From a virus (Duplodnaviria; Heunggongvirae; Uroviricota; Caudoviricetes), in IMG/VR virus record IMGVR_UViG_2565956716_000001: 13,546 bases of DNA, one strand, 5' to 3'. Of the stretch, positions 1 through 13,546 are shown in pieces. The position numbers and the translations under genes were made by a program. Position 1 is the stretch's first letter. Every line of letters begins with the position of its first letter. The notes beneath the pieces are model-generated. The model did not search any database. It was not told where the DNA came from and saw only the letters and a list, made by a program, of their open reading frames with translations.

Positions 1-1164
1 TTACGCCTTCTTTATATCCTCCATAATTCCACAGTGGGACATATTTGGGACATTATCACCAAAAATGTCGTCTATTTTCCTTGCATGCTCTGTCAAATGA
101 TTAGGCGCAAGGTGAGCATACCTACGAACCATTTCTATGGACTCCCATCCGCCCATTTCCTGAAGCACAGATAATGGGACGCCTGACTGGATCAGCCAGC
201 TTGCCCAGGTGTGTCTGAGGTCATGGAAACGGAAATCTTCAATTCCTGCACGACGACAAGCTGATAGCCATGATGTCTTGCTGTCGATGCGCATCTTCCT
301 GACCGCAGGCGTTGATGTTCCATCTGCTCGCTTAGCCGCCTTGGTATGTACAAACACCCATTTGTGATGCTTGCCTATTTGATCACGCAACACTTTACAG
401 GCGGTATCGTTCAGCGCCACACCAATGGCGCGGTTTGATTTGCTCTCTTCTGGATTCACCCAGGCAACTCGTCGCTGCATGTCGATTTGTTGCCATTCCA
501 GATTTATGATGTTCGACTTTCTCAGACCAGTTGCCAGCGCAAACTTGACGACAGATTTCAGTGGTTCGGGGCACTCATCAATAAGGCGTTTTGCTTCCTC
601 CTTTTCCAGCCATCTGACGCGCTTGTTTCTGACCGCTGGTATCTTGATGACAGGCGCTTTTTCCAGCCACTTCCAGTCGCGTTCTGCAGCACGGAGAATG
701 GCCTTTATCATGGCAAGATGCTTTGCCTTTGTCTGAGTTGATACTGGCTTTGGTTCATAAACAGGCGGTTCTTTACCTTTCCTGATGGCGGCCTGAACTT
801 TCTGTTTCCATATTTCTTTCGTCTTTCTGTTATGCATTCTGCTTACAGCAGAGTAAATCTTTGCCTCCGAGATATCTTTAAGCCTTATACCCTCAAAATG
901 TTCAAGCCAGAACTCAATCCGGCTTTTATCTGAATCGAGAGATTTTTTATCAGCTTTTTCTTCAAGCCATCTTAGGCAGGCCTCTTCAAAAGTGACATCA
1001 GGTAAATCCCCTAGCTTTTCTACTCGCCAGAGTTCTGCTTTTCGCTTGTCGTGCAACTCCTGAGCTTGCCGCTTGTCCTTTGTGCCAAGAGATTCCTTAA
1101 TTCGTTTCCCGCCCGGGAGCGAATACGAGGCATACCATATTTCATTTCTGCGGAAGAGTGACAT
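1..1164 (-). CDS. intD: Phage tyrosine integrase (P22/DLP12 Int family)
   Basis: 387-aa ORF with C-terminal tyrosine-recombinase motifs (HDLRHTWAS ... VRRYAHL). ATG at 1164 is preceded by a GAGGAAAG Shine-Dalgarno. N-terminus MSLFRR..WYASY..GKR is typical of P22-type integrases. The window starts on its stop codon, so the att site lies outside. Confidence 0.95.
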
Positions 1165-4308: not shown

Positions 4309-5304
4309 GTGACCGTGAGAGCACTACTGACCCCTGAAATTGCCCCGCGTATGGGGATCGTATTGTTCAGGCCCGGTTCAGAGCTGATGCCCCTGTTTAT
4401 GCAGGGGCGTGTACTGCTGGAGCCTGAGCCGGAGCATTATTCATCTTTCGCCAGTGGTGCCGTTCCCGCGGCATCACAACCGCTGGCGGATGATCCTGCC
4501 GTTCGGGCCGTGTTCCGTAATGAGGCAGTGATTCGTCGTGCTGGTGGGGTGGAATGTCTTGAAAGCTGGTTACTTCGTGAAAAAGGCTGCCAGTGGCCTC
4601 ATTCCGACTGGCACAGCGAGAACATGACCACAATGCGACACGCGCCGGGCGCAATCCGTCTGTGCTGGCACTGCGATAATCAGTTACGTGATCAGTTCAC
4701 GGAGCGGCTGGAATCAATGGCAACGGATAACTGTGCCCGTTGGGTGTTGTCTGTAGTCCGTCGGGATCTCGATTTTAATGATAACCATGCCGTGACAATG
4801 CCGGAACTGTGCTGGTGGCTGGTTCGTAATGACCTGGCGGATGCCTTACCGGAAAGCGCAGCCCGTAAGGCACTGAGATTACCGAAGTCTGTTTTGCCGT
4901 CTGTCACTCGGGAAAGTGACCTTGTGCCTTCGGTTCCTGCCACCAGCATTATCCAGGATAAAGCGAAAAAGGTGCTGGCGCTGAAAGTGGATCCGGAGTC
5001 GCCGGAGTCTTTTATGTTACGCCCCAAACGTCGTCGCTGGGTTAATGAACAGTACACGCGCTGGGTTAAGACGCAGCCGTGTGCATGTTGTGGAAAGCCA
5101 GCTGATGATCCGCATCATCTGATAGGCCATGGTCAGGGTGGAATGGGTACAAAAGCGCATGACCTTTTTGTGCTGCCTTTGTGCAGAAAACACCACGACG
5201 AACTGCATGCGGATACCGTGGCATTTGAAGAGAAGTATAGCTCCCAGCTGGAGCTGATATTTCGTTTTATCGATCGCGCACTGGCGATTGGTGTGCTGGC
5301 CTGA
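4309..5304 (+). CDS. DUF968-family protein with C-terminal HNH-like motif
   Basis: 331-aa ORF. The C-terminus [31 protein letters not shown] is the cysteine/histidine motif of DUF968 proteins found next to Q in lambdoid prophages. Start is uncertain: GTG at 4309 sits 1 nt after the upstream stop, with internal ATG alternatives. Confidence 0.7.
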
Positions 5305-5321
5305 TTTTGTGGAGAAAGTTA

Positions 5322-5705
5322 ATGCGTGATATTCAGATGGTTCTTGAACGTTGGGGAGCGTGGGCGGCTAATAATCATGAAGATGTGACCTGGTCGTCCA
5401 TTGCCGCCGGTTTTAAGGGATTAATTCCTTCAAAAGTAAAATCTCGCCCGCAATGTTGTGACGATGACGCGATGATCATTTGCGGGTGCATGGCCCGTCT
5501 GAAAAAGAACAACAGCGATTTGCACGATTTATTAGTAGATTATTATGTAGTCGGTATGACATTCATGTCACTGGCAGGTAAGCATTGCTGCTCTGATGGT
5601 TATATCGGGAAAAGGTTACAGAAGGCTGAGGGCATAATTGAAGGGATGTTAATGGCATTAGATATCCGGTTAGAGATGGATATCGTTGTTAATAACTCTA
5701 ATTAA
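5322..5705 (+). CDS. quuD: Late-gene antiterminator Q (DLP12 QuuD-type)
   Basis: 127 aa from the ATG at 5322 (GGAGAAAG RBS); the ORF track begins 5 codons earlier at a [21 protein letters not shown]... with a Cys-rich zinc-binding region ([12 protein letters not shown] ... HCC) fits the small Q antiterminator family. Confidence 0.85.
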
Positions 5706-5728
5706 TATGCCAATTGTTTACTGAAAGT

Positions 5729-5756
5729 TATTAAAAATGGGGCGTTGCAACGCCCC
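5729..5756 (-). terminator. Intrinsic terminator for minus-strand (porin) transcripts
   Basis: Perfect palindrome GGGGCGTTGCAACGCCCC at 5739-5756, followed on the minus strand by ATTTTTAAT. On the plus strand it is followed by CAAAAATAAA, so it works in one direction only. Confidence 0.55.
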
Positions 5757-5844
5757 CAAAAATAAAGGGTAATATATAACAGAAGGTTTATATAGTTAGA
5801 AGCAAGGTTGTGCTCCTAAAGGAAGTGGCTTGAGGGAGCCACTT

Positions 5845-5885
5845 ATATGTTGGGGAGGCAACGCCTCCCGCAACATATCTTTTTC
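5845..5885 (+). terminator. Intrinsic terminator on plus strand downstream of Q (candidate tR'-like)
   Basis: Long hairpin ATATGTTG-GGGAGGC-AAC-GCCTCCC-G-CAACATAT at 5845-5878, followed by CTTTTT at 5879-5884. It lies about 140 nt after the Q stop, matching the lambda arrangement in which a short PR' transcript ends at tR' unless Q-modified. Confidence 0.5.
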
Positions 5886-5894
5886 GTAATCAGA

Positions 5895-6992
5895 TTAGAA
5901 CTGGTAAACCAGACCTACAGCAACGATGTCATCAGTGCTTACACCGAGTGCTTTAGTGAAGTCATTTTTGTCAAGCAGGTTGATTTTGTAATCAACGAAA
6001 GTAGACATATTTTTGTTGAAGTAATAGGTTGCACCTACATCAACATATTTGACTAAGTCCTGATCGCCCCATACTCCAAGATCCTTACCTTTAGATTGCA
6101 GGTAAGCAACGGACGGACGCAGACCGAAATCGAACTGATATTGTGCAACAGCTTCGAAGTTTTGAGCTTTATTAGCAACGAAGTGATCAGCAAATACAGT
6201 CATATTCTGGGTTTCAGAATAGGTAGTGGCCAGGTAAATGTTGTTAGCGTCATATTTCAGACCTGCGGCCCAAACTTCTGCATTTTTACCGGAAGCAAAT
6301 ACTTCAGGAAGAACTTTCCCTGCATTAACTTGAGTGTCGGTACGATCAGATTTCGCATAAGTTGCACCGATACCGAATCCTTCGTATTCATAGGTAGCAG
6401 AGAAACCGAAGCCATCACCGTTACCTTCGGTGTAGTTATCGAAATCGCTACGATCGTTTTTGCCTTGGTACTGAGCAGCAAAGTTCAGACCATCAACCAG
6501 ACCAAAGAAGTCGTTGTTACGATAGGTTGCAACACCAGTGGTGCGACCAGTCATGAACACATCTGTTTGGGTCCAGGTATCGCCACCGAATTCTGGCAGA
6601 ACGTCAGTCCACGCACCGATGTCGTATGCTACACCGTAGTTACGGCCGTAATCGATTGAGCCGTAGTCACCGAATTTCAGGCCTGCAAATGCAAGACGGG
6701 TTTTGTCTTTGGAGGAACCTTGAGATTCAGCGCGGTTGCCTTTGAATTCATATTCCCACTGACCGAAACCAGTCAGCTGATCGTTGATTTGGGTTTCGCC
6801 TTTGAAGCCCAGACGAACATAAGTAGTATCACCATCATCTGCATCGTTAGAGGAAAAGTAGTGCTTGGCATTAACTTTCCCGTACAGATCCAGCTTGTTA
6901 CTGTCTTTATTATAAATTTCAGCTGCCTGAGCAGACATCGCCATCAGTACTGATGCAGCTACAGCAGAAATTGCCACTGTTAATTTTTTCAT
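5895..6992 (-). CDS. nmpC: Outer-membrane general porin NmpC (OmpC/OmpD/Lc family), intact
   Basis: 365 aa with signal peptide [27 protein letters not shown] and a C-terminal ..VAVGLVYQF beta-barrel motif ending in Phe. ATG at 6992. Uninterrupted ORF in this window. Confidence 0.95.
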
Positions 6993-7470
6993 CGTGAGCC
7001 CTTTTTTTTGAACTATTATTAAAAAATGATGTCACTGCGCGATAAATATTCATCTAATCAATGTGATTATTTCAAGATGTAAGTTTTAGTTTCTCATTTA
7101 ATTTGTGAAGTAGATCTCTATTTTTATCTGAACTTTTTCTATCGAAACCTATTTATGGCTCTTATTTGAACAAAAATAAATCTATTAGCTAATTTATATT
7201 AATGGCTGTTATTTATGGTGGTTCTATAATTTGTCTGTTTAATTTAAACCAGCTAAAAATAACGCTGGAAATTATTTATTGGTTATTTGTTGAAGTTTTC
7301 TTATGTATTTGTGGTGGTGTTTTGAACACTCGGTAGCATTCTCATAAATATCATTCAGTGGTTTACGTACGTAAAAAATTGGTTATGCTGTTAAGAGTGG
7401 TTACTTCGTCACACAGCTTAAACCCGCCGTCGAGCTGGTTTTTCCATTTTTTGAGTCTCGATATTAGCTG
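6993..7470. promoter_or_regulatory. AT-rich regulatory region upstream of nmpC (porin promoter, likely nucleoid-protein bound)
   Basis: About 480 bp of strongly AT-rich non-coding sequence between the divergent porin and lysis genes, with no ORF of 60 aa or more. No promoter elements could be assigned with confidence. Confidence 0.3.
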
Positions 7471-7528
7471 ATAACTCAATACCTGAGTTATTCACTGACT
7501 CGGAGTCAGTTACGTTTCTGCTTTTTTG
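7471..7528 (+). terminator. Tandem hairpins plus T-tract upstream of the holin gene (possible terminator or operator)
   Basis: ATAACTCA-ATACC-TGAGTTAT (7471-7491) and ACTGACT-CGG-AGTCAGT (7494-7510), then CTTTTTTG at 7521-7528. The T-run lies about 11 nt from the second stem, so terminator function is uncertain. Confidence 0.3.
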
Positions 7529-7580
7529 CGATACGTTGTATTCCCTCAATTTACACCCGCTTTGTCTGCGAGGTGGGGTT

Positions 7581-7796
7581 ATGAAATTCATGGATAAGTT
7601 AACAACTGGAGTCGCCTATGGCACCTCAGCAGGTAGTGCCGGTTACTGGTTTTTACAGCTGCTCGATAAAGTCACTCCCTCACAGTGGGCAGCAATAGGT
7701 GTGCTGGGTAGCCTGGTATTTGGCCTGCTGACGTACCTGACAAACCTTTATTTCAAGATTAAAGAAGATAAGCGCAAGGCTGCGAGAGGTGAATAA
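7581..7796 (+). CDS. essD: Class II holin (phage 21 S / pinholin type) with dual-start motif
   Basis: 71 aa from the ATG at 7581 (GAGGTGGGG RBS), with a second in-frame ATG at 7590 (M-K-F-M), the dual-start arrangement of S21 holin/antiholin. Two transmembrane segments and a charged C-terminus ([13 protein letters not shown]). Stop overlaps the next ATG as TAATG. Confidence 0.9.
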
Positions 7797-8293
7797 TGCC
7801 TCCATCATTACGAAAAGCCGTTGCTGCTGCTATTGGTGGCGGAGCAATTGCTATAGCATCAGTGTTAATCACTGGCCCAAGTGGTAACGATGGTCTGGAA
7901 GGTGTCAGCTACATACCATACAAAGATATTGTTGGTGTATGGACTGTATGTCACGGACACACCGGAAAAGACATCATGCTCGGTAAAACGTATACCAAAG
8001 CAGAATGCAAAGCACTCTTGAATAAAGACCTTGCCACTGTCGCCAGACAAATTAACCCGTATATCAAAGTCGATATACCGGAAACAACGCGCGGCGCTCT
8101 TTACTCATTCGTTTACAACGTGGGTGCTGGCAATTTTAGAACATCGACGCTTCTTCGCAAAATAAACCAGGGCGATATCAAAGGCGCATGTGATCAGCTG
8201 CGTCGCTGGACATACGCTGGCGGTAAGCAATGGAAAGGCCTGATGACTCGTCGTGAGATTGAGCGTGAAGTCTGTTTGTGGGGGCAACAGTGA
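7796..8293 (+). CDS. rrrD: SAR endolysin (T4-lysozyme-like muramidase, phage 21 R type)
   Basis: 165 aa. The Gly/Ala-rich N-terminal segment [20 protein letters not shown] is a signal-anchor-release domain. Catalytic Glu35-Asp44-Thr50 are in the expected spacing ([18 protein letters not shown]). Confidence 0.92.
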
Positions 8294-8751
8294 GCAGAGT
8301 AACCGCGATTATATCCGCTCTGATTATCTGCATCATCGTCAGCCTGTCATGGGCGGTCAATCATTACCGTGATAACGCAATCGCCTACAAAGCCCAGCGC
8401 GACAAAAATGCCAGAGAACTGAAGCTAGCGAACGCGGCAATTACTGACATGCAGATGCGTCAGCGTGATGTTGCTGCGCTCGATGCAAAATACACGAAGG
8501 AGTTAGCTGATGCGAAAGCTGAAAATGATGCTCTGCGTGATGATGTTGCCGCTGGTCGTCGTCGGTTGCACATCAAAGCAGTCTGTCAGTCAGTGCGTGA
8601 AGCCACCACGGCCTCCGGCGTGGATAATGCAGCCTCCCCCCGACTGGCAGACACCGCTGAACGGGATTATTTCACCCTCAGAGAGAGGCTGATCACTATG
8701 CAAAAACAACTGGAAGGAACCCAGAAGTATATTAATGAGCAGTGCAGATAG
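8290..8751 (+). CDS. rzpD: i-spanin Rz
   Basis: 153 aa from the GTG at 8290, which overlaps the endolysin stop (GTGA); an alternative GTG lies at 8278. N-terminal transmembrane helix followed by a coiled-coil-like periplasmic domain. Confidence 0.85.
8510..8692 (+). CDS. rzoD: o-spanin Rz1 lipoprotein, embedded in the +1 frame of Rz
   Basis: 60 aa with AAGGAG RBS at 8497-8502 and ATG at 8510. Lipobox LVVVGC and a proline-rich mature part ([15 protein letters not shown]), wholly nested inside the Rz gene. Confidence 0.8.
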
Positions 8752-8782: not shown

Positions 8783-9076
8783 TTATTTTGAGCAATACAC
8801 ACGCGCTTCCAGCGGAGTATAAATGCCTAAAGTAATAAAACCGAGCAATCCATTTACGAATGTTTGCTGGGTTTCTGTTTTAACAACATTTTCTGCGCCG
8901 CCACAAATTTTAGCTGCATCGACAGTTTTCTTCTGCCCAATTCCAGAAACGAAGAAATGATGGGTGATGGTTTCCTTTGGTGCTACTGCTGTCTGTTTGT
9001 TTTGAACAGTAAATGTCTGTTGAGCACATCCTGTAATAAGCAGGGCCAGCGCAGTAGCGAGTAGCATTTTTTTCAT
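8783..9076 (-). CDS. borD: Bor lipoprotein (serum-resistance / outer-membrane lipoprotein)
   Basis: 97 aa with lipoprotein signal MKKMLLATALALLITGC. Matches the lambda Bor family along its whole length as recalled. Confidence 0.9.
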   Translation of the reverse strand: MKKMLLATALALLITGCAQQTFTVQNKQTAVAPKETITHHFFVSGIGQKKTVDAAKICGGAENVVKTETQQTFVNGLLGFITLGIYTPLEARVYCSK

Positions 9077-11016: not shown

Positions 11017-11562
11017 ATGGAAGTCAACAAAAAGCAGCTGGCTGAAATTTTCGGCGCGAGTATCCGTACCATTCAGAACTGGCAGGAGCAGGGAATGCCC
11101 GTTCTGCGAGGCGGTGGGAAGGGTAATGAGGTGCTTTATGACTCTGCCGCCGTCATAAAATGGTATGCCGAAAGGGATGCTGAAATTGAGAACGAAAAGC
11201 TGCGCCGGGAGGTTGAAGAACTGCGACAGGCCAGCGAGACAGATCTCCAGCCAGGGACTATTGAGTACGAACGCCATCGACTTACGCGTGCGCAGGCCGA
11301 CGCACAGGAGCTGAAAAATGCCAGAGACTCCGCTGAAGTGGTGGAAACCGCATTCTGTACTTTCGTGCTGTCGCGGATCGCAGGTGAAATTGCCAGTATT
11401 CTCGACGGGATCCCCCTGTCGGTGCAGCGGCGTTTTCCGGAACTGGAAAACCGACATGTTGATTTCCTGAAACGGGATATCATCAAAGCCATGAACAAAG
11501 CAGCCGCGCTGGATGAACTGATACCGGGGTTGCTGAGTGAATATATCGAACAGTCAGGTTAA
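11017..11562 (+). CDS. nohD: Terminase small subunit Nu1
   Basis: 181 aa, [36 protein letters not shown]..., collinear with lambda Nu1 over its full length. N-terminal winged HTH and P-loop-like GGGKG. Confidence 0.95.
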
Positions 11563-13546
11563 CAGGCTGCGACATTTTGTCCGCGCCGGGCTTCGCTCAC
11601 TGTTCAGGCCGGAGCCACAGACTGCCGTTGAATGGGCGGATGCTAATTACTATCTCCCGAAAGAATCCGCATACCAGGAAGGGCGCTGGGAAACACTGCC
11701 CTTTCAGCGGGCCATCATGAATGCGATGGGCAGCGACTATATCCGTGAGGTGAATGTAGTGAAGTCTGCCCGTGTCGGTTATTCCAAAATGCTGCTGGGT
11801 GTTTATGCCTACTTTATAGAGCATAAGCAACGCAACACACTTATCTGGTTGCCGACGGATGGTGATGCCGAGAACTTTATGAAAACCCACGTTGAGCCGA
11901 CCATCCGCGATATTCCGTCGCTGCTGGCGCTGGCTCCGTGGTATGGCAAAAAGCACCGGGATAACACGCTCACCATGAAGCGTTTCACCAATGGTCGTGG
12001 CTTCTGGTGCCTGGGCGGTAAAGCGGCAAAAAACTACCGTGAAAAGTCGGTGGATGTGGCGGGTTATGATGAACTTGCTGCCTTTGATGATGATATTGAA
12101 CAGGAAGGCTCTCCGACGTTCCTGGGTGACAAGCGTATTGAAGGCTCGGTCTGGCCAAAGTCCATCCGTGGCTCCACGCCCAAAGTGAGAGGCACCTGTC
12201 AGATTGAGCGTGCAGCCAGTGAATCCCCGCATTTTATGCGTTTTCATGTTGCCTGCCCGCACTGCGGGGAGGAGCAGTACCTTAAATTCGGCGATAAAGA
12301 GACGCCGTTTGGCTTCAAATGGACGCCGGATGATCCCTCCAGCGTGTTTTATCTCTGCGAACATAATGCCTGCGTCATCCGCCAGCAGGAGCTGGACTTC
12401 ACTGATGCCCGTTATATCTGCGAAAAGACCGGGATCTGGACCCGTGATGGCATTCTCTGGTTTTCGTCATCCGGTGAAGAGATTGAGCCACCGGACAGCG
12501 TGACCTTTCACATCTGGACGGCGTACAGCCCGTTCACCACCTGGGTGCAGATTGTCAAAGACTGGATGAAGACGAAAGGGGATACGGGAAAACGTAAAAC
12601 CTTCGTGAACACCACGCTCGGTGAGACATGGGAAGCGAAAATCGGTGAACGTCCGGATGCTGAAGTGATGGCAGAGCGGAAAGAGCATTATTCAGCGCCC
12701 GTTCCTGACCGTGTGGCTTACCTGACTGCCGGTATCGACTCCCAGCTGGACCGCTACGAAATGCGCGTATGGGGATGGGGGCCGGGTGAGGAAAGCTGGC
12801 TGATTGACCGGCAGATTATTATGGGCCGCCACGACGATGAACAGACGCTGCTGCGTGTGGATGAGGCCATCAATAAAACCTATACCCGCCGGAATGGTGC
12901 AGAAATGTCGATATCCCGTATCTGCTGGGATATTGGCGGGATTGACCCGACCATTGTGTATGAACGCTCGAAAAAACATGGGCTGTTCCGGGTGATCCCC
13001 ATTAAAGGGGCATCCGTCTACGGAAAGCCGGTGGCCAGCATGCCACGTAAGCGAAACAAAAACGGGGTTTACCTTACCGAAATCGGCACGGATATTGCAC
13101 CACCAGATATTCCTGCTGGCTTTGTGGCTGTTTTCAACAGTGATGAGGCATCGTGGCATCTCGTTGAAGATCATCGGGGTAAAACGGTTTATGACGTGGC
13201 TTCCGGCGACGCGTTATTTATTTCTGAACTCGGCTCATTACCGGAAAATGTCACCTGGTTATCCCCGGAAGGGGAGTTTCAGAAGTGGAACGGCACAGCT
13301 TGGGTGAAGGATACGGAAGCAGAAAAACTGTTCCGGATCCGTGAGGCGGAAGAAACAAAAAACAGCCTGATGCAGGTAGCCAGTGAGCATATAGCGCCGC
13401 TTCAGGATGCTGTGGATCTGGAGATCGCAACGGAGGAAGAAACCTTGTTGCTGGAAGCCTGGAAAAAGTATCGGGTGTTGCTGAACCGTGTTGATACATC
13501 AACTGCACCTGATATTGAGTGGCCTACGAACCCTGTCAGGGAGTAA
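11537..13546 (+). CDS. Terminase large subunit gpA (N-terminal ~519 aa) fused in frame to the C-terminal ~150 aa of tail-fibre assembly protein Tfa; deletion remnant
   Basis: GTG start at 11537 overlapping the Nu1 3' end. Residues 1-519 follow lambda gpA ([14 protein letters not shown]...[10 protein letters not shown]...). After ..LTEIGTD (codon 519 at 13091-13093) the sequence continues [35 protein letters not shown]...[13 protein letters not shown], which is the Tfa C-terminal region. The window ends on its stop codon. Confidence 0.88.

Follow-up and report, generated by a model that had tools for sequence, protein, structure and literature searches.

Porin genes carried by lambdoid elements have been described as nmpC of Escherichia coli K-12 and lc of phage PA-2. 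In the DLP12 (qsr') prophage of K-12, integrated at argU, the genes are arranged in the order quuD - nmpC (minus strand) - essD - rrrD - rzpD - borD, and the nmpC gene of MG1655 is split by IS5 after codon 346. The K-12 gene has a sigma-70 promoter located within 199 bp upstream of its start codon, and the transcription start identified by 5' RACE was a G (PMC11677980). The same report, without a test of its own, lists CRP, acting at two sites, as the activator of PnmpC and OmpR, IHF and MprA as its repressors, with further control by the sRNA RyhB (PMC11677980). In NCM3722, a K-12 strain whose nmpC is intact, NmpC accounts for about 2% of the proteome and is the major porin when carbon is limiting, and the levels of OmpC are more than 10-fold lower than in MG1655; the reported regulation of this NmpC-type porin, which goes up under carbon limitation, is opposite to that of OmpC (PMC8144880). 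The porin transcript of DLP12 and PA-2 also includes an RNA, IpeX, that represses the host OmpC and OmpF porins (PMC12197685, PMC5069750, PMC3333887), and the porin levels of NCM3722 fit both an activation by CRP and the action of IpeX. The intact nmpC of E. coli B is described as quiescent (Prilipov 1998, as cited in later work); therefore, expression of the porin in the host of the DNA analyzed here is not guaranteed. The lc region of PA-2 was sequenced in the 1980s (GenBank J02580). The nmpC/lc gene, its position between Q and S, its inactivation by IS5 in K-12, its promoter and its IpeX 3' UTR were all already published.

Other cargo genes of lambdoid phages provide a second term of comparison. 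Shiga-toxin (Stx) phages such as 933W and Sp5 harbor stx in the Q-to-S interval, downstream of the late promoter pR' and on the same strand, so that the toxin is a Q-dependent late product. In the Sp5 and Stx1 phages of the Sakai strain, the pR' start detected by dRNA-seq lies 258 nt upstream of a 3' end detected by Term-seq, and most pR' transcripts end at that distance and not at the first hairpin (PMC7547250). In lambda, bor and lom encode outer-membrane proteins that are produced from the prophage by means of their own signals and from the strand opposite to the late genes; bor, located after Rz, lies inside the late-transcribed region and is crossed antisense by late transcription.

The DNA analyzed here (13,546 nucleotides, hereafter the window) is a DLP12-type cryptic lambdoid prophage extending from intD (1-1164, minus strand) to a terminase gene. 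Its gene content includes RusA, a KilA-N protein, a DUF968 protein, QuuD, a phage-21-type holin, a lysozyme, Rz/Rz1, Bor, YbcV and Nu1. E. coli MSHS 472 gave the best match among genomes; in it, the element adjoins tRNA-Arg (argU), upstream of ompT, which is the position of DLP12 in K-12. The window shares with DLP12 its integration at argU, the gene order given above and nearly identical spacers flanking nmpC, whereas the interior of the K-12 prophage, between xis and rusA, contains other genes. In the last ORF of the window (11537-13546), the ATPase domain of a terminase and a truncated nuclease domain are fused to one for tail-fibre assembly, and no head or tail genes follow this ORF in the matching genome; the element is therefore defective, a remnant in contrast to the viable phage PA-2. 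Our main reading, to which we assign a probability of about 85%, is that this prophage at argU carries an intact nmpC/lc porin moron organized as a self-contained leftward unit, divergent from the late promoter pR' (Table 1).

Table 1. Features of the Q-porin-holin region and adjacent lysis genes (positions are those of the window).
Feature	Position	Strand	Basis
quuD, Q antiterminator gene	5322-5705	+	Pfam Phage_antitermQ, E=9.8e-54; PHROG 79
Porin 3' UTR, 167 nt, corresponding to the published IpeX RNA (predicted coordinates)	5728-5894	-	Fold, terminator
Predicted leftward intrinsic terminator, hairpin and T run	5739-5756	-	Terminator scan
Candidate intrinsic terminator: rightward hairpin and CUUUUU, directly next to the porin stop codon	5845-5884	+	Fold
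nmpC/lc porin CDS, 365 aa	5895-6992	-	ATG start; Pfam, NCBIfam, PHROG, structure alignment
Porin signal peptide	6924-6992	-	Residues 1-23
Porin promoter region	7038-7121	-	K-12 mapping, conservation; exact hexamers read from the sequence
Porin transcription start, a G (predicted coordinate)	near 7038-7040	-	5' RACE G in K-12
Porin -10, GAATAT	7046-7051	-	Sequence reading
Porin -35, TTGAAA	7070-7075	-	Sequence reading
CRP-like site, about -71 from the predicted porin start	7101-7121	-	Annotated in PA-2 record J02580
Variable AT-rich spacer between the porin-promoter and late-promoter blocks	7136-7359		Most variable part of the 10-copy alignment
pR' homologue, facing essD	7362-7389	+	Homologous to putative pR' in OP797663, KR781488; invariant in 10/10 copies
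pR' -35, TTTACG; 16-nt spacer; -10, TATGCT	7362-7367; 7384-7389	+	Alignment with Stx phages
pR' predicted start	near 7396	+	Predicted coordinate
First hairpin and T run; candidate early terminator or Q-loading region	7422-7453	+	Homologous to 'possible rho-independent terminator' of 933W-type records
Further hairpins	7471-7510	+	Fold
essD, holin, dual start (Met 7581 and 7590)	7581-7796	+	Pfam Phage_holin_2_1; RefSeq and 434B annotation
rrrD	7796-8293	+	Pfam Phage_lysozyme; late lysis operon
rzpD	8290-8751	+	Pfam Phage_lysis; late lysis operon
rzoD	8510-8692	+	Late lysis operon
bor homologue	8783-9076	-	Domain/profile match in the window

A preliminary description of this DNA had recognized a complete 365-aa OmpC-family porin with a signal peptide, encoded on the minus strand between the antiterminator and the lysis genes, and our analysis bore this out as to the ATG start, the family and the flanking genes. 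The protein matched the Pfam model Porin_1 over its entire length (1-337 of 337, E=1.8e-156, 521 bits vs. a cut-off of 23.7) and PHROG 410 from end to end; it surpassed the cut-off of the NCBIfam subfamily 'porin OmpC' (527.8 bits vs. 484), and fell below the equivalog cut-offs of both PhoE and OmpF. Residues 24-365 aligned end to end with residues 1-343 of the mature, crystallized OmpC (2xe2_A; E=5.4e-136, 69% identity). As this alignment begins at residue 24 (AEIYNKD...), the first 23 residues, which are hydrophobic and end in AQA, constitute the signal peptide. The PEFGG motif of the loop-3 constriction and the C-terminal VYQF, with its terminal aromatic Phe, are both conserved with respect to OmpC. 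Taken with the 69% identity to a solved structure over the whole mature chain, the anticipated beta-barrel fold is well grounded, and the protein is predicted to form a 16-stranded trimeric barrel; its likeness to OmpC suggests that it would act as a general-diffusion porin. The product is thus of the same family and fold class as the chromosomal OmpC, OmpK36 and PhoE porins. Unlike the chromosomal OmpC, however, it is phage-borne, and its gene is followed by a 3' UTR of the type that represses ompC.

The gene had been named nmpC and considered intact, and both statements hold. When IS5 and its 4-bp duplication were removed in silico from the K-12 gene, 362 of the 365 residues were identical between the two proteins, the K-12-to-window substitutions being A59V, Q149G and A151T. 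The IS5 target of K-12, TTAG, corresponds to positions 5953-5956 and is unoccupied in the window, where neither an insertion sequence nor a frameshift interrupts the frame. Lc (protein 2) of PA-2 is also identical at 362/365 residues, and over the Q-side spacer, lc and the sequence up to R the PA-2 DNA is 97.8% identical to the window, in the same orientation. PA-2 further shares with the window an IpeX-type 3' UTR and a T at position 7436, a polymorphic site considered below.

An own, regulated promoter had also been attributed to the porin, within an AT-rich upstream region spanning 6993-7470. The promoter mapped by 5' RACE in K-12 (PMC11677980) lies in a stretch that was invariant in the 10 copies that we aligned (the window, K-12, PA-2 and seven phages), so this claim stands. 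The region is indeed AT-rich (GC content of 0.27-0.33 over 6801-7400), but only its left part can be ascribed to the porin, as 7362-7470 belongs to the late-promoter block. In the alignment of 10 copies, two blocks were invariant but for one site: 6980-7135, on the side of the porin promoter, and 7360-7475, containing pR'. This pattern supports the existence of two separate control regions, one for the porin and one for pR', whose predicted starts would be about 355 bp apart and divergent. A second CRP site annotated in the 1986 PA-2 record (about 7397-7417) was considered as a regulator of the porin and discarded, since it matches the CRP consensus poorly and is located inside the conserved initial transcribed region of pR'.

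At its other end, the porin gene is followed by a segment with a strong tendency to fold (-62.4 kcal/mol, z=-8.0 for the 167 nt of the 3' UTR), which was 92.5-100% identical in 36 phage records. Among the 10 copies, the substitutions fell mostly in loops, and no compensatory pairs were found, the sequences being too similar. The correspondence of this segment to IpeX was absent from the preliminary description. When 5300-7900 was compared with Rfam (E<=1), the only match was a chance one to a snoRNA; apparently, neither IpeX nor the pR' leader RNA is an Rfam family. The Q and porin genes are convergent, with 189 bp separating their stop codons, and on the plus strand the hairpin at 5845-5884 was also unusually stable (-21.3 kcal/mol, z=-4.55; none of 200 shuffled sequences was as stable). 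If it acts as a terminator, this element would stop the transcripts leaving Q before they enter the porin gene in the antisense direction.

The location of the late promoter is the point on which the interpretation of the locus turns. The Q-proximal spacer (5690-5900) and the porin-to-holin spacer (6993-7545) were searched separately against phage records. The former matched 36 records only, and the porin was present in all of them (36/36). The latter, the 553-bp nmpC-essD spacer, matched 355 phage records, most of them only over positions 369-451 of the query (7361-7443 of the window) and mostly from Shiga-toxin phages. In these phages the counterpart of 7361-7443 is situated at the end of Q, and is annotated as a putative late promoter pR' followed by a possible rho-independent terminator. 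The alignment with the Stx phages extends beyond the -10 element of pR' into the invariant sequence TAAGAGTGGTTAC. The core motif of pR' occurred once in the window, and no copy was found in the Q-proximal spacer. The 258 nt reported for the Sakai phages equal the distance between the predicted start of the annotated pR' and the second annotated terminator in a 933W-type record of identical sequence. The pR' hexamers of the window are weak (8/12 consensus matches). With default settings, a promoter and terminator scan of 5500-7700 returned only two promoter-like sites, both inside Q, and missed pR' as well as PnmpC; a relaxed scan recovered pR' at 7362-7389, together with much AT-rich noise. 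In the first hairpin, position 7436 is polymorphic (G/T), and the variant present in the window makes the stem weaker (-8.4 kcal/mol) than that of K-12 (-16.1 kcal/mol).

The antiterminator gives a further argument. The name quuD is that given by RefSeq to an identical sequence, and the relationship of QuuD to the solved Q21 structures (6p18/6jnx) is distant; its identity to the Q protein of a 933W-type phage is 79%, so the same binding site is expected. On the basis of these alignments, late transcription most likely starts near 7396 and proceeds to the right, reaching essD at 7581; this gene opens the late lysis operon and is followed by rrrD, rzpD and rzoD. Such transcription would be divergent from the porin unit, and QuuD would act at 7362-7453 in this prophage.

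The same comparison delimits the insert. Homology to the Stx-phage Q gene breaks off within quuD at about 5685 (codon ~121), and homology is found again from about 7360 onward; the Stx phages whose Q is 79% identical have no porin unit at this point, and their pR' overlaps the end of Q. The intervening ~1.67 kb (about 5686-7359) supply Q with an alternative C-terminus and contain, in addition, the porin gene together with its regulatory region, 3' UTR and terminators. That the flanks are adjacent in Stx phages, where the porin is absent, that the gene has its own promoter (mapped in the near-identical K-12 copy) and that it has its own predicted terminator agree with its earlier classification as a moron. 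The porin unit would thus have been inserted between the Q gene and the site of action of Q.

The preliminary description had proposed a different architecture, in which Q-dependent late transcription from a promoter near Q runs antisense through the porin gene, making porin and late-gene expression mutually antagonistic. As the pR' homologue is located to the right of the porin gene and is divergent from it, and the Q-proximal spacer shows no homology to pR', antisense antagonism dependent on Q is not supported. A late promoter within 5706-5894, from which Q-modified polymerase would travel antisense through the porin to essD and antagonize it by convergent transcription, is hardly credible to us. 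It is true that pR' abuts Q in lambda and in Stx phages, and that a weak plus-strand promoter-like match (5769-5796, 8/12) precedes the hairpin and T run of 5845-5884 in an arrangement superficially similar to pR'-tR'. However, the homologue of the pR' that is cognate to the 79%-identical Stx-phage Q is found at 7362-7453, away from Q, while the Q-proximal spacer, besides lacking the core motif, is found only in the company of the porin and corresponds to its 3' UTR (IpeX) and terminator. Moreover, a K-12 fragment without this spacer was used as the lysis-operon promoter in a lux reporter, with a pH-dependent output (PMC7918800); by its primers, one of which matched only when typos were allowed, this fragment maps to about 6920-7690 of the window. 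Antisense transcription might instead originate in the early rightward operon, if N-modified or unterminated Q transcripts cross 5845-5884 in induced intact relatives; in the defective prophage, the hairpin and T run at this position would normally stop them. The convergence of Q and the porin, with their stop codons so close, and the strong plus-strand hairpin with CUUUUU exactly at the junction are compatible with this idea, and in lambda N-modified RNA polymerase ignores intrinsic terminators. Against it, no N, nut or immunity region was noticed among the annotated genes, a statement that concerns the annotation only, and an rrnB terminator placed in the nmpC/quuD spacer of K-12 was without measurable effect on IS5 transposition, the only phenotype tested (PMC11677980). 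We regard this source of antisense transcription as possible, although we lean against it.

The published sigma-E-type promoter 'essDp' would change the picture in another manner if it were the operative lysis promoter. It would be placed at about 7010-7042 on the plus strand; this position falls inside the 5' UTR of the porin, so that essDp and the porin promoter, whose start lies near 7038-7040 on the other strand, would stand back to back. In PMC7918800, an amplicon designated '-121 to +650' puts +1 at about 7042 of the window, as judged from primer mapping, and a spacing of 16 nt separates GAACTA (7010-7015) from TCACT (7032-7036), two motifs reminiscent of a sigma-E promoter. This placement is nevertheless a reconstruction from the primers of a paper that cites the original description (Rueggeberg 2015); genomic SELEX located no sigma-E site here, and only a peak of the sigma-S holoenzyme in the insH-essD spacer (PMC5493296). 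In addition, a transcript starting at 7042 must still pass the conserved block of pR' and hairpins. We consider essDp unlikely as the operative promoter; were it correct, a polymerase at one promoter would exclude the other, and the resulting antagonism would be real but not antisense. More generally, an antagonism between porin and lysis genes arising from promoter architecture, be it exclusion between a sigma-E start at ~7042 and the porin start at ~7040, or a coupling of PnmpC and pR' by supercoiling or nucleoid proteins through their shared 320-bp AT-rich spacer, seems to us very unlikely; under the same proposal, the common G/T variant at 7436 could also set the basal leak of the lysis cassette. 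Leakage of this cassette in K-12 has been linked to biofilm and vesicle phenotypes.

The arrangement of Q, porin and holin is a long-known and widespread module. Of 5426 complete E. coli genomes, 2404 (roughly 44%) contained in contiguous form the 2.2 kb that extend from the end of Q across the porin gene to essD, and the module was present in at least 36 phage records, mostly complete genomes, PA-2 and 434B among them. The hybrid 434B took up the K-12 copy of the porin together with its IS5.

Under our preferred reading of a self-contained leftward unit, the sigma-70 promoter near 7040-7075 would drive expression of the 365-aa porin and then of the structured 167-nt 3' UTR (IpeX), up to the terminator at 5739-5756. 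A lysogen would thereby gain one more major porin, strongly produced when carbon is limiting, and the 3' UTR would lower the host OmpC and OmpF, so that the phage porin would replace those of the host. In the case of PA-2, whose receptor is OmpC, this replacement could represent a superinfection-exclusion trait. Q-modified late transcription, in turn, should never cross the porin gene. The window thus resembles the stx-carrying phages 933W and Sp5 in its Q family (79% identity), its homologous pR' block and the presence of cargo in the Q-to-S interval, but the porin unit lies upstream of pR' and on the opposite strand, and would be Q-independent and expressed in the lysogen. With lambda bor and lom it shares the production of an outer-membrane protein from the prophage, with its own signals and from the strand opposite to the late genes; unlike bor, it would be outside the late transcript.

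In summary, when the locus is compared with that of Stx phages, the insert comes to lie upstream of pR', so that the porin would be expressed in the lysogen and uncoupled from lysis, in contrast to stx. This represents a correction for annotation, as cargo located in the Q-to-S interval of lambdoid phages is not automatically inside the Q-dependent transcript. Furthermore, the intact allele predicts more NmpC and less OmpC than in K-12 MG1655, and such an altered porin make-up would bear on antibiotic permeability and on the availability of phage receptors in E. coli strains carrying the module.

The first hairpin downstream of the predicted late promoter homologue pR' carries a G/T polymorphism in its stem at window position 7436 (GCGGG vs GCTGG). 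In the 10-copy alignment, T was present in the window, PA-2, ev099 and ev207, while K-12 and five other phages had G. The calculated fold energy of the T form (-8.4 kcal/mol) indicated a much weaker hairpin than that of the G form (-16.1 kcal/mol), and this weaker structure might lead to a higher basal read-through into the lysis genes. The same alignment revealed, upstream of the holin gene essD, a 17-bp segment (window 7523-7539) resembling CTGCTTTTTTGCGATA and including a T run; it was present in the window and in most phages, and missing in the K-12 prophage DLP12 and in phage mEp332.

On the strand opposite to the porin 5' UTR we identified a sigma-E-like motif (see the table below). When the primers of an amplicon described in the literature as "-121 to +650" were mapped, its +1 fell in this motif region, in a back-to-back arrangement with the start site of porin transcription. 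At the other end of the gene, the short antisense ORF is labelled "ORF1" in the PA-2 record and annotated as a hypothetical protein in the hybrid phage 434B; a PHROG search with it returned no match, and it is probably not a gene. The window also encodes a second outer-membrane moron, of the Bor family, which differs from the porin in its setting, as bor lies antisense within the late-transcribed region, whereas the porin gene is not inside it.

Features located in the window and in the Shigella phage SfIV locus
Feature	Sequence	Coordinates	Strand	Remarks
69-aa ORF	window	5847-6056	+	antisense to porin 3' end
Sigma-E-like motif	window	7010-7042	+	GAACTA, 16 nt, TCACT; within porin 5' UTR, opposite strand
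Bor-family lipoprotein gene	window	8783-9076	-	directly after Rz
669-aa fusion ORF	window	11537-13546	+	terminase large subunit joined in frame to tail-fibre assembly domain
Hypothetical ORF	SfIV (L007)	1-1044	-	cut off at locus edge

At ~2738-2741 the window lacks 684 bp found in its closest genomes, such as that of E. coli MSHS 472, which aligned with the window in two pieces (100% and 99.99% identical) apart from this gap; in MSHS 472 the 684 bp take in the final part of an HTH-protein pseudogene and the bulk of yfdN, a PerC-family gene. The fusion ORF is the scar left by deletion of all head and tail genes; its terminase part retains the ATPase domain and a nuclease domain that is truncated, stopping at position 235 of the 294-position profile.

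In ev243 and PhiR68_2 the porin is annotated as two CDSs of 1035 bp and 135 bp, which suggests a frameshift or an early stop near the 5' end; some phage copies of the porin thus appear not to be intact. In SfIV, positions 1201-1361 are homologous to window 7389-7545 and are followed by the SfIV holin. Because the minus-strand ORF of this phage sits immediately upstream of the homologous segment, the slot directly 5' of such late-promoter blocks may be open to other leftward cargo.
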